Of a DNA stretch of 64,000 nucleotides, positions 12,049-17,483 are shown in pieces. The notes beneath the pieces were generated by a model. It ran no database searches. It was given only the letters and a program-made list of their open reading frames with translations, and was not told the DNA's origin. Each line of letters opens with the position of its first letter. The stretch's first letter is position 1. This stretch comes from an uncultured Caulobacteraceae bacterium (lineage in GTDB: Bacteria > Pseudomonadota > Alphaproteobacteria > Caulobacterales > Caulobacteraceae). The stretch spans positions 15,726 through 79,725 of the forward strand of contig CAYSNW010000008.1 of NCBI GenBank assembly GCA_964432415.1. The letters run 5' to 3'. The translations under genes and the position numbers were made by a program.

Positions 12049-12963
12049 CTAGACGCCGAGCAGGCTGCGCGAGCGCAGCAGGAAATTGTGCAGGGTGGCG
12101 GCGTGCATGGCGGCGTCCGGCTGCACGTGGCTCGACTCCAGCACCCGGTTTGGCCCGCCCTTACCGTCCGAGCCGGTCAGGTTGGAGGGGCCGCTCGAGT
12201 CCGCCGCCGCGCGCATGGAGTCCCGCTGCTTGAGGACCTGATCGTTCAGCTTGTCCATCTTCCCGTGCAGGGTGTCGACCGCGGGCTGTTCGGCCTTCAG
12301 GCGCTGATCCCGGTCGACGGTCCACTTGTCCATGTCGTCCTTCATGGCCTGCAGCTTCTTGCGGGCCTCCGGATCCTTGGTGTTGTCGAGCGCGTCCTGA
12401 ATGCGCAGGCGCTCGTGGTCGCCGACCTCCTTCTTCTCCTTCATGATCTGGTCGAGCTTGCCCGTCCCGAAGGAGGTGTCGTCCAGCATGTTGGCCAGCA
12501 GGCGCATGTTTACCTTGGCTCGCCCCAGGTCCTCGCTGAGTTGGCGCAGGGTGTAGTCGTGGTCCTCCAGGAACTTCTTCTGCAGCTCCCGGATTTTGGC
12601 GACCTGGTATTCGTCGGTGAAGCCGGTCACCGGCTGACCGACCGCCGTGAGCAGGTAGTTGCCCATCCCCTTCAGGAAGCCGCCCGTGGTCGGGTCGCTG
12701 CCGATCGCCTTTTCGAACATGCTCTCGACCGGCTTCAGCGGATTGGGGCCGCTGGGGTCGAAGGTCCTGAAGCTCGGCGGCCCGCCCTGTTTCGCCGAGG
12801 TGGCCAGGGCCTTGGCCCAGGGCTGCACCGCGTCGCTGTGGTTCGACGCGGTGTTTGCCAGGCTGTCGCGCACGGTGTCGATCGACAGGTCGTCGTGGCG
12901 CGGGGCGGGGGCGGGGCGGGGCGGCAGAACCGGGCCGCCGCTCAGGCCGTCATTGTCGGTCAT
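12049..12963 (-). CDS. hypothetical charged coiled-coil protein (304 aa, K/D/E/Q-rich, no TM), last gene of the five-gene cassette
   Basis: In-frame ATG at 12961-12963 (MTDNDGLSGG...). An AGGA RBS lies 7 nt upstream, in the 10-nt spacer after the stop of the 555-aa gene. Confidence 0.7.
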   Translation of the reverse strand: MTDNDGLSGGPVLPPRPAPAPRHDDLSIDTVRDSLANTASNHSDAVQPWAKALATSAKQGGPPSFRTFDPSGPNPLKPVESMFEKAIGSDPTTGGFLKGMGNYLLTAVGQPVTGFTDEYQVAKIRELQKKFLEDHDYTLRQLSEDLGRAKVNMRLLANMLDDTSFGTGKLDQIMKEKKEVGDHERLRIQDALDNTKDPEARKKLQAMKDDMDKWTVDRDQRLKAEQPAVDTLHGKMDKLNDQVLKQRDSMRAAADSSGPSNLTGSDGKGGPNRVLESSHVQPDAAMHAATLHNFLLRSRSLLGV

Positions 12964-12973
12964 GGCACGATCC

Positions 12974-15032: not shown

Positions 15033-15688
15033 TCGCCGTCCTCCCAGTTCAGGGCGTACTTGCGTGCGATCAGGCCCAGCACCAGGCCGTAGGCGGCATG
15101 GCCGCTCATGCTGAGCACGATGAAGTCGAGCTGGTTGGTGACCTTCATGAACATGGGGAACAGGCCCAGCATGCAGGCTTCCAGGAACATCGCCCAGCCC
15201 ACGGCGTACAGCCAGTGCCGGCGCCCGAAGGTCAGGACGTAGAACAGGGCGATCACCAGGCCGTTCCAGTAGTGGTAGGTCCAGCCGGCTAGGGCCGTGG
15301 CCAGGGAGTCCATCGGCTGGCCGGTGATCCAGTGGCCGAAATAGTAGTGGGACTTGTAGCTGTCGAACTTCGTGAAGAAGGTCTTCATTAAGAGCAGCCG
15401 CACCCCGTCGTAGGTCAGCACCGCCACCACGCCCGCGCCCAGGCCCACCTGGACCGCCCGAATGAACACCCGCGCGTCGACCCACCTGGCGTAGGCGGCG
15501 ACCACGAACAGCAGGATGGTCGCCGGCACCCCGAAGAAGGTCAGGAAATAGACCATCGGCAGGACGCCCCAGACGTGGCTGACCAGGGCGCCCAGAGACG
15601 CCAGCGAACAGAAGGCCGCGACCCAGCGCAGCTGCCGGTCGAGCCTGGCCGTAACCTTCGGCTTCTCAATCGGCGGCATGAACGACAC
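15029..15688 (-). CDS. hypothetical polytopic membrane protein (219 aa, about 6 TM)
   Basis: Hydrophobic helices throughout with coding-type GC3. Overlaps the upstream large membrane gene by 23 nt. No recognised family. Confidence 0.7.
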   Translation of the reverse strand: MSFMPPIEKPKVTARLDRQLRWVAAFCSLASLGALVSHVWGVLPMVYFLTFFGVPATILLFVVAAYARWVDARVFIRAVQVGLGAGVVAVLTYDGVRLLLMKTFFTKFDSYKSHYYFGHWITGQPMDSLATALAGWTYHYWNGLVIALFYVLTFGRRHWLYAVGWAMFLEACMLGLFPMFMKVTNQLDFIVLSMSGHAAYGLVLGLIARKYALNWEDGE

Positions 15689-17483
15689 GGGCGGTCTCCC
15701 CCGGCTTGCGGTCCCCGATCAGCATCTGTTCCAGCGCGCGGGTGATGCGCTGCATGATCAGGCCCACTGCGATGCTGAGCGCGAAGAGGATCAGGGTGGT
15801 CATGACCGCCATCACCACATTGCCCAGCCGTCCGAAGATCGTGAAGAACTTCGGCCCCAGCTTGCTCTGCAGGGCCGCCAGCAGGGTGGAATAGACCTTG
15901 ATGCTGAGCCACAGCAGCACCGCGGCGTTGAGGATCAGCAGGCCGTTGCGCACCCGTCCGGCATGGCGTTCGTCCGCCGTGGCCCGCGCGCGCCAGGCCA
16001 GGGTCGCGCCCCGCGTCGCCCAGCCCGACACTGCCGCCAGCAGCAGCATGAAGGAGGCCAGCTGGGCCGGGTCGAGGCTCGGGAAGCCGGCACGGTTGAT
16101 GAAGGCGATGGAGCTGAAGGGCGGGTAGTAGCGATCGAGCGGGACGTGAAACAGCACCAGCAGCGCCGCCCCCATGGCCGCGAACGACAGGGCGCTCTCG
16201 CCGTTGAAGCGCAGCTTCAGGTCGGGCTCGGTGCGGCCCGGCGGACGGTCCGGTCGCATCACGAACCAGCCCAGCAGCAACACGATCAGAATGATCTGCA
16301 GCACCGTCAGCTTGAGCACCGGGAGCATGAGATTGAGCAGGAGCGTGTTCCACACCATCGGGCCCCAGGTCTGGGGCAGGCGCGACAGTCCCAGCACGAT
16401 CACGGCGACGGCGGCGCTCGCCAGCCAGACGTCGATCCAGAGGAACCAGGGCGCCCGTCGCGGCTTCGGCGCGGCTGCCAGGCGCTCCAACTCCTCGAGC
16501 CGCAGCTCGAGCATGCGTTCGCTCTGAAACAGCTCGTTGCGCCGGACCATGTGACGGACTTCGGCCTGGGCGTACCCCATCTGGGCTCGAAGGCGGTCGC
16601 GGTGGGACTCGAACGCCCAGCCGGCAGGCCCCCCGGCCAGGAAGCCGCGGCCGCGCCGGTGGCAGGCGTCGACGAAATCCACGAGCAGGTCGCGCACGCT
16701 GGGCGGCCTCTCGCCCCGGCTGTTGGCGGCCCACCGGCCTTCCATCACCGAGAGAGTCAGCAGGGCAAGCAGGCACACAGCGGCGAAGAACAGCCCATGC
16801 AGCATCACCGTGTCGAAGAGCTTCAGGAAGCCTTGCTCGGGCCGGTAGGGTCCGAATGTCGCGAGCTGATAGGTCCAGACCGCCTCGTGCAGAGTCACGA
16901 GCGCGAAGACCGCCAGCGTGACCGGAATGGCGTAGCGCCGCTTGCGGGCGAAACGCAGCATCGCCGCCAGGGTCAGGCAGATCAGTCCCATGGCCCAGGC
17001 CACCCCGGCCAGGGCGAAGTCGCCGCGGAAGCCGAGGATCACGTCCGTCGGCTGGGCGCTCCAGGTGAACTGCCACGGGGGAAACAGGGTGAAGCCCTTC
17101 AGCGCCGCCCCCTTGGCGCCGGCCGCCAGCACCCCGCCCACCAGCTCGAAGCCCAGGCCCAGGGCGAAAGCCAGAAGGAAGGCGTCGGCGATGCTGGTCA
17201 GGCGGAAATTGCGCTGGAAGAACAGGTAGGTGATCACCGGCGACAGCAGCACCATGTTGCGCATGGCGACCCGCAGCACCTCGTTCAGGAACGGATGGCC
17301 GTAGTCGCCCAGGGGGTAGGGGACGATGAACTTCTCGGCCAGGGGCGCGGCGGTCACCGCCATCAGGGCGCCCAGCGCGGCGAAAGCCAGGAGCGTGCGC
17401 GCCGACAGGGTCCCACGGCCCGCGAACAGGCGAACGATCAGCGCGGTCCAGGCCGCCATCAGGAGCAGTTCGAGCAACGCCAT
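15666..17483 (-). CDS. hypothetical large polytopic membrane protein (605 aa, at least 12 TM with a central cytoplasmic helical segment), first gene of the cassette
   Basis: In-frame ATG at 17481-17483 (MALLELLLMAAWTALIV...). The central segment HMVRRNELFQSERMLELRLEELERL separates two TM bundles. Confidence 0.7.
   Translation of the reverse strand: MALLELLLMAAWTALIVRLFAGRGTLSARTLLAFAALGALMAVTAAPLAEKFIVPYPLGDYGHPFLNEVLRVAMRNMVLLSPVITYLFFQRNFRLTSIADAFLLAFALGLGFELVGGVLAAGAKGAALKGFTLFPPWQFTWSAQPTDVILGFRGDFALAGVAWAMGLICLTLAAMLRFARKRRYAIPVTLAVFALVTLHEAVWTYQLATFGPYRPEQGFLKLFDTVMLHGLFFAAVCLLALLTLSVMEGRWAANSRGERPPSVRDLLVDFVDACHRRGRGFLAGGPAGWAFESHRDRLRAQMGYAQAEVRHMVRRNELFQSERMLELRLEELERLAAAPKPRRAPWFLWIDVWLASAAVAVIVLGLSRLPQTWGPMVWNTLLLNLMLPVLKLTVLQIILIVLLLGWFVMRPDRPPGRTEPDLKLRFNGESALSFAAMGAALLVLFHVPLDRYYPPFSSIAFINRAGFPSLDPAQLASFMLLLAAVSGWATRGATLAWRARATADERHAGRVRNGLLILNAAVLLWLSIKVYSTLLAALQSKLGPKFFTIFGRLGNVVMAVMTTLILFALSIAVGLIMQRITRALEQMLIGDRKPGETARVVHAAD

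Follow-up and report, generated by a model that had tools for sequence, protein, structure and literature searches.

A five-gene cassette of an uncultured Caulobacteraceae bacterium, probably a split variant of the predicted PrsW-dependent polymorphic toxin systems

The stretch of DNA considered here, hereafter the window, comprises 64,000 nucleotides (nt) of contig CAYSNW010000008.1 from an uncultured Caulobacteraceae bacterium, and carries at 12049-17483 a cassette of five co-directional open reading frames (ORFs) on the minus strand, A-B-C-D-E (Table 1). Reading the DNA directly reveals a 23-nt overlap between A and B, an ATGA stop/start overlap between B and C, a 4-nt spacer between C and D, and a 10-nt spacer between D and E, where a GAGGA overlaps the stop codon of D. 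The five ORFs and their four junctions lie exactly where the original prediction, made from the letters alone, had placed them, and three independent Logan assemblies, whose DNA is near-identical, yield the same gene lengths (605, 219, 128, 555 and 304 amino acids (aa)). For gene B, an alternative in-frame ATG at 15679 would yield a product of 216 aa and reduce the A/B overlap to 14 nt. Moreover, unrelated metagenomic contigs carry A, B, C and the N-terminal portion of D in this order, with 42-77% identity, which excludes a chance packing of ORFs and supports, by synteny, the earlier proposal of a co-inherited module. The transmembrane (TM) content announced for the products stood in its outline, with 5-6 hydrophobic segments in B for about six predicted and none in D or E, and only the figure for A had to be loosened from at least 12 to about 11-12. 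What did not survive is the claim that the cassette is devoid of recognisable families, as A is a remote homologue of PrsW and APH-1, B belongs to a family carrying DUF6789, and D ends in a predicted Tox-PL1 domain. Altogether, the cassette is probably a variant of the predicted PrsW-dependent polymorphic toxin systems in which the components are split over several genes.

Table 1. Features of the five-gene cassette and of its surroundings, in positions of the window.
Feature	Positions	Strand	Size or extent	Description
Gene A	15666-17483	minus	605 aa	polytopic inner-membrane protein (predicted): N-terminal 7-TM PrsW/APH-1-like domain, cytoplasmic helical insert (~256-345), C-terminal multi-TM domain
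PrsW/APH-1-like domain of A	16719-17441	minus	~residues 15-255	MAFFT alignment with the P0072 N-terminus, hhalign
Gene B	15029-15688	minus	219 aa, from GTG	
Gene C	14646-15032	minus	128 aa	signal/anchor helix, short periplasmic Cys motif, Gly-rich TM segment then RRRRR, coiled coil
Periplasmic Cys motif of C	14874-14933	minus	residues 34-53	H-D-C-S-G-P-D-D-C-x-x-L-P-P-N-V-D
Gene D	12974-14641	minus	555 aa	conserved N-terminal helical domain (~36-200), repeat stalk, C-terminal Tox-PL1 head
Stalk repeat of D	13635-13936	minus	39-nt unit (13 aa, AAQEQAAKEAAEK-type), 7.7 copies	Tandem Repeats Finder score 343-385, 79-84% matches
Tox-PL1/OspI-like papain-fold domain of D	12977-13354	minus	residues 430-555	
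Catalytic residues of D	13310-13312; 13088-13090; 13043-13045	minus	Cys444; His518; Asp533	with Gln535
Gene E	12049-12963	minus	304 aa	
Intergenic region, A to S41-like peptidase gene	17484-17702		219 nt	divergent; presumed cassette promoter region
S41-like peptidase	17703-19061	plus		
tRNA-Ser(TGA)	19565-19654	minus		
ORF convergent with E	11826-12045	plus	73-74 aa	ends 4 nt from the E stop
Multi-TM protein	9954-10700	plus	248 aa	rich in conserved His
Secreted protein	19154-19558	plus	134 aa	

The D protein has no TM segment and, as had been predicted, no signal peptide. Its description as a repeat protein is confirmed by the 39-nt tandem array, which encodes a helical stalk of Ala, Glu, Lys and Gln at about residues 236-336. 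Beyond this stalk, residues 458-538 align with PF15644 (Tox-PL1/Gln_amidase, labelled papain fold toxin 1, glutamine deamidase) at 23.1 bits (E 1.6e-4), for a gathering score of 24.1. The heads of two relatives, that of locus L015 (GCA_041495485.1) and that of the fusion protein P0072, reach 24.5 and 46.5 bits, respectively. An exhaustive HMMER search with residues 404-555 gathered 188 representative homologues, proteins of 110-6609 aa that mostly bear the domain at their very C-terminal end; all ten sampled head homologues pass the PF15644 gathering score, and the carriers include proteins with RHS repeats (P0100), WXG100 (P0081) or PrsW (P0072). In the part of Zhang et al. (2012, PMC3482391) on which we draw throughout, Tox-PL1 is defined by an NC-H-DxQ signature. 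In alignments of 15-22 sequences, N443-C444, H518 and D533-A-Q535 of D fall on invariant columns, and a profile including D matches Shigella OspI (3b21) over the whole domain (E 3.1e-6), with NC, H and D aligned. The papain-type Cys-His-Asp domain noticed earlier at the end of D is therefore borne out, and these profile comparisons identify the head as, in all likelihood, a known polymorphic-toxin head of Tox-PL1/OspI type with its catalytic signature intact. No record of the exact D sequence was found, the D of the Logan assemblies differing by one residue, and a word-index search with the C-terminal 152 aa missed even a 99.8%-identical Logan protein, so that its null results do not amount to absence. 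Full-length D retrieved only Cry6Aa from the PDB, at an insignificant E of 0.4, and the N-terminal domain of D has no match in Pfam.

Gene A has no direct family match in Pfam, PF13367 not being matched at E<=1, nor at E<=0.1 by the distant A-like protein of locus L019, and PDB searches with two profiles (A1 and A2) returned no matches. Its affiliation was obtained through P0072, a relative of 1079 aa that unites in one chain a PrsW domain passing Pfam (27.6 vs. 23.5 bits), a C-type coil, a D-type N-terminal domain, a stalk and the Tox-PL1 head. The A family aligns with the PrsW region of P0072 over 320 columns (hhalign probability 97.8%, E 1e-12). The predicted active-site motifs of PrsW are EExxK in TM helix (TMH) 3, a His in TMH5 and HxxxD/N in TMH6 (PMC4602095), and P0072 retains them as EELAK, GHG and HAMFN. 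At the corresponding positions, A reads R75-N76-M-V-L, Val/Ala/Tyr and (H/D)199-E200-A-x-W, and all 13 aligned sequences of the family carry RN(L/M)xL (or other non-acidic residues), AG(V/A/Y) and (H/D/E)(E/A/Q)Axx in place of the PrsW motifs. On this alignment, A is a remote homologue of the PrsW/APH-1 superfamily without any canonical PrsW catalytic residue, a conserved and catalytically degenerate protein to which a cytoplasmic helical insert and a C-terminal TM domain are added. Since the replaced motifs are themselves conserved across all orthologues, R75 and N76 being nearly invariant, purifying selection likely acts on a non-catalytic function of A. A may also hold a re-wired active site, as E50, E113, E200 and E248 are conserved. 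There is a precedent in APH-1, an accepted non-catalytic relative of the PrsW and CPBP proteases (PMC6588880).

The two other membrane proteins of the cassette are likewise conserved. The B protein has about six TM segments, is modelled with a predicted local distance difference test score (pLDDT) of 94 and has no solved structural relative. B itself does not match PF20587 (DUF6789) at E<=1 in Pfam; a precomputed PF20587 assignment exists for about half of the 59 homologues of B (39-63% identity), and the orthologue in L009 passes the gathering score (29.0 vs. 27.1). By homology, B is thus a presumptive member of a family whose members carry DUF6789. In the otherwise hydrophobic B, the polar residues D94, R97, H139, N142, E170 and H197 are invariant and could form an intramembrane catalytic or metal site. 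The Cys motif of C is kept in all orthologues under the general form H-D-C-S-x3-4-D-C-x2-L-P-P-N-V-D, and the positive-inside rule would place the coiled coil of C on the cytoplasmic side. C is fused to D-type proteins in L015, P0074, P0075, P0076 and P0079, as well as in L004, a Binatia metagenome-assembled genome (MAG) where the fusion partner is a 492-aa coiled-coil protein with no recognised head. The C-D fusions and the PrsW-C-D fusion of P0072 speak for a joint physical unit of A, C and D.

The C-terminal payload is the variable part of this unit. In L007 and L008, A, B and C are followed by a 497-aa orthologue that matches only residues 36-302 of D and whose C-terminus is an unrelated His...Cys domain without match in Pfam, and then by a different small gene; head and downstream gene have been swapped, while A-B-C and the N-terminal domain of D were kept. 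Other C-termini are found in L004 and in a second C-type protein of L015. This distribution suggests that the N-terminal domain of D is a docking module, the head and the genes that follow it being variable. To judge from the loci compared, A, B and C form the usual core, from which L013 and L014 (B without A) and L006 (A, C and D without B) depart; in L011 (Methylomirabilota), L017 (Koribacter MAG), L019 and the P0060 locus, an A-like gene, B and a short C-like gene stand with associated proteins that differ and carry Sec signals. The alternative head of L007 (C-terminal ~160 aa of L007:4453-5946, ...VGVHG...VRLVSCWSG...) retrieves noise only from the PDB, and the 123-aa protein encoded next to it (L007:5943-6311, ...ITDGEWLWRSDLAHYVERYH...) has no match in Pfam or the PDB; together they are a candidate for a new toxin/immunity pair. 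Locus L015 comprises A, B, the C-D fusion ending in Tox-PL1, a gene for Imm35 (45 bits) and a full-length homologue of E. The second C-type protein of this locus (L015:10508-12798, 493 aa) has the Cys motif, a TM segment, a coiled coil and a C-terminus homologous to the 492-aa protein of L004. A Fic-domain gene comes directly after it, and the two may represent a second effector pair on the same A-B platform.

Gene E encodes a soluble, charged protein, helical by composition, with no family match in Pfam or NCBIfam and only noise in a PDB search. Its homologue in L015 is 33% identical over the full length (E 2e-48) and sits downstream of Imm35, itself directly after the Tox-PL1 toxin. In the text of Zhang et al. 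used here (2012, PMC3482391), Imm35 is associated specifically with Tox-PL1. The last gene of the cassette had been proposed to provide immunity. We rejected E as an Imm35-type immunity protein, as it does not match Imm35 and as L015 carries a separate Imm35 between the toxin and the E homologue, from which it follows that E is not a canonical immunity protein. E is more likely a conserved partner of Tox-PL1-type D proteins. A tblastn search with the Imm35 of L015 found nothing in the 64-kb window. The lack of Imm35, together with the lack of catalytic residues in A, could betray a decaying, non-functional remnant, a toxin locus orphaned by the loss of its immunity gene and active protease. 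We hold this to be highly improbable, given that all five ORFs are intact and translationally coupled, that the catalytic signature of D is complete, that E is kept at full length in L015, and that the "dead" motifs of A are maintained in all orthologues, a mark of purifying selection rather than decay. An OspI-like head without recognisable immunity gene nevertheless raises the question of self-protection, unless the target is absent from the producer. Ubc13, the target of OspI, is a eukaryotic protein.

In the reading that we favour, a PrsW-dependent toxin system distributed over several genes, A and the DUF6789-family protein B would form an inner-membrane platform. C would be its bitopic adaptor, held in the platform by its periplasmic knob, probably disulfide-bonded, and by its glycine-zipper TM segment, and would present its coiled coil to the cytoplasm. 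D would dock on C through its conserved N-terminal helical domain, and its helical stalk of variable length would carry the toxic payload, an OspI-like Cys-His-Asp enzyme acting as a peptidase or glutamine deamidase. The platform would then move this payload through the membrane, or release it from there, for action on rival cells. E would be a helper specific to the Tox-PL1 version of the system, whether as a chaperone, an adaptor or a non-canonical inhibitor. The fate of the PrsW motifs would agree with this scheme: fused P0072 keeps them, as expected if its toxin must be cut free, and in the split form, where the payload is already a separate polypeptide, they are gone. The physical assembly of A-B-C-D, the export and toxicity of D and the role of E are inferred, and the effector/export module that had been suggested for this cassette is in this sense plausible.

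The closest described category is that of the PrsW-dependent polymorphic toxin systems, computationally predicted by Zhang, de Souza, Anantharaman, Iyer & Aravind (2012, PMC3482391). The likeness lies in the association of a PrsW-superfamily multi-TM domain with a variable C-terminal toxin head, in relative P0072, which has the architecture given in the portion of that work used here (N-terminal PrsW, linker, toxin), and in relative L015, with its Imm35 downstream of the toxin. The differences are several. In the window, the components A, C and D are encoded separately and the PrsW-like domain is not fused to the toxin; A fails PF13367 and lacks EExxK, the TMH5 His and HxxxD/N, hence the proposed autoproteolytic release cannot apply; A possesses an extra cytoplasmic helical insert and an additional C-terminal TM domain; and its obligate partners are a DUF6789-family protein and a bitopic protein bearing a Cys motif. 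The DUF6789-family protein, the Cys-motif anchor, the N-terminal domain of D and E were not found in that portion of PMC3482391, and Tox-PL1 does not figure in its table of PrsW-linked heads. Published examples are mainly from Gram-positive bacteria, whereas the loci described here belong to MAGs labelled Binatia, Methylomirabilota and Koribacter, and to a high-GC genome. The cassette is tied by evolution to PrsW-type polymorphic toxins and would function in a similar way; it is neither categorically new nor already known as such.

Other known systems resemble single parts of the cassette. Tox-PL1 and OspI (3b21) share with the head of D the NC...H...DxQ signature, the domain length and the terminal position; the trafficking contexts given for Tox-PL1 in the part of PMC3482391 at hand are type II, III, VI and VII secretion systems (T2SS, T3SS, T6SS and T7SS) and MuF, whereas the carrier of D consists of an N-terminal domain and an Ala/Glu/Lys stalk that would dock to a membrane anchor. 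In the S8 peptidase polymorphic toxin systems (S8-PTS; PMC9424270), an accessory or processing component is likewise a separate operonic gene rather than part of the toxin; this component is a soluble, active S8 peptidase of Gram-positive bacteria, the toxin N-terminal domain is BetaH, and there is no membrane platform. As regards A, the inferred N-out 7-TM topology is common to APH-1. TMEM147, which we take to group with APH-1, shares it as well, and all of these would be scaffold subunits without protease activity. The two comparators, non-catalytic members of the Rce1/CPBP/PrsW superfamily, are eukaryotic and only 8-9% identical to A, which is longer by about 350 residues. Furthermore, APH-1 keeps conserved polar and His residues (PMC6588880), and A does not.

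Several points weigh against a split toxin system. The D of the window scores 1 bit below the PF15644 gathering score. Release through cleavage by PrsW, as published, cannot hold as written for an A without the catalytic residues. D has no signal peptide and the coiled coil of C, hence D, is placed in the cytoplasm, so that export must be postulated, and as the host appears to be a high-GC diderm, the outer-membrane step is left unexplained. Neither Imm35 nor any other recognisable immunity gene was observed in the window. Full-text literature searches found no experimental demonstration of PrsW-dependent toxin export. Finally, A-B-C occur without recognisable toxin in L011, in the P0060 locus and in L004, and the core may therefore have a toxin-independent role.

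This last point bears on a first alternative, in which A-B-C would be a housekeeping complex for the organisation of the envelope or membrane, built on an APH-1-like scaffold, with D and E as structural coiled-coil partners and a papain-like domain that processes or deamidates an endogenous substrate. APH-1 and TMEM147 are, after all, non-catalytic scaffold subunits. Some Tox-PL1 copies are moreover regarded as releasing peptidases in the text of Zhang et al. that we used (2012, PMC3482391). We regard a housekeeping role as improbable. The family is extremely sparse and patchy and scattered over unrelated phyla: 5.8 billion proteins contain only ten clusters of A, and three loci were found in the genomes of 185,579 species. 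The genomic neighbours are different at every locus compared, and the variability of the head, the pairing with Imm35 in L015 and the location of Tox-PL1 at the end of the protein are all toxin-like.

A second alternative follows from the topology. D and the coil of C are placed in the cytoplasm, and signal peptides are lacking in both D and E, all of which would suit a membrane-tethered suicide or stress effector that is never secreted: A would sense envelope damage or phage, A-B-C would hold D at the cytoplasmic face until a trigger lets it modify or cleave host or phage proteins, in abortive infection or in a response to envelope stress, and E would be a regulator or inhibitor. PrsW proper is a protease that senses envelope stress (PMC4602095), no immunity gene was found in the window, and the Imm35 of L015, lacking a signal peptide, must act in a cytoplasm. 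The slightly lower guanine-plus-cytosine (GC) content of the cassette also fits (0.65-0.70 in window 12000-17500, vs. 0.71-0.73 in the flanking genes). We nonetheless think this alternative unlikely. The PADLOC models gave weak matches no better than coiled-coil noise (JetC, E 7e-4; ZorA, E 0.39; LmuB, E 0.027), and no phage or defence-island genes were seen adjoining the cassette in the window. Elsewhere the head family sits on exported RHS and WXG100 toxins, and head swapping with a change of the downstream gene is a hallmark of inter-bacterial polymorphic toxins. The mild GC dip is consistent with a horizontal acquisition of the cassette without proving it, and the window shows no integrase in the vicinity of the cassette.

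Modules of two-partner secretion (TPS), PAAR/VgrG, WXG/LXG and RHS, as used in delivery by the type V, VI and VII secretion systems (T5SS, T6SS, T7SS) or by RHS proteins, were found neither in A-E with Pfam and NCBIfam nor in the immediate neighbours tested, and the NCBIfam library had nothing meaningful for the cassette proteins. A bolder proposition, which we advance tentatively as a possibility, is that A-B-C constitute an unrecognised inner-membrane protein-handling apparatus. A dead PrsW/APH-1-like scaffold and a DUF6789 subunit with an invariant intramembrane D/H/E/H constellation would recruit stalk-mounted cytoplasmic enzymes via a coiled-coil adaptor, and translocate or release them. 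If true, diderms would possess a new route by which polymorphic toxins are secreted or delivered, and the scaffold role of APH-1 in gamma-secretase would have a prokaryotic counterpart. A bacterial PrsW homologue without catalysis, yet under selection, would indeed parallel the APH-1 and TMEM147 scaffolds. Together with fused P0072, the cassette offers a genetically separable handle on PrsW-dependent export, a computational category since 2012, with its platform (A and B), anchor (C), payload (D) and helper (E). In addition, the genomic association reported here is the first clue to the function of DUF6789.

The surroundings of the cassette were also considered. The divergent peptidase announced earlier is present, with an S41 domain (PF03572, 30.5 bits), and was rejected as a component of the system since it adjoins the cassette in none of the other loci. 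The tRNA-Ser gene reported 2 kb away was likewise recovered. Scans for promoters, terminators and Rfam elements gave nothing informative, and in the divergent intergenic region neither a sigma-70 consensus match nor an Rfam element was found. Gene callers also report the small ORF convergent with E in the Logan assemblies; it was rejected as an immunity gene because of its wrong orientation and the lack of a Pfam match. The His-rich multi-TM protein and the 134-aa secreted protein on either side have no Pfam match and are not beside the cassette in other loci.

Some proteins associated with the relatives deserve mention. B-family genes of Binatia-like contigs are accompanied by a conserved secreted protein of about 145-170 aa (RYFTSP...DW..LS.YYDL...GFWRY.HPF.PGF...GYQILP; L013:7210-7728, L004:5876-6310 and L015:9975-10427), which comes directly after B in L013 and L014, where there is no A. 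This protein has no match in Pfam, and the window encodes no counterpart of it. In the C-terminal part of a 1226-aa protein of L019, an AHH-nuclease-like "DAHHIVE" motif was noticed by eye; Pfam gave no confirmation of it. In the distant clade to which L019, L017 and L011 belong, neighbours of A-B-C (L019:9201-12881, L017:9034-11283 and L011:6627-8471) have Sec signal peptides and a common "TGTW..." N-terminal domain, and a secreted protein resembling Big_2 or pilus-N domains is encoded upstream of A in L011 and L019.

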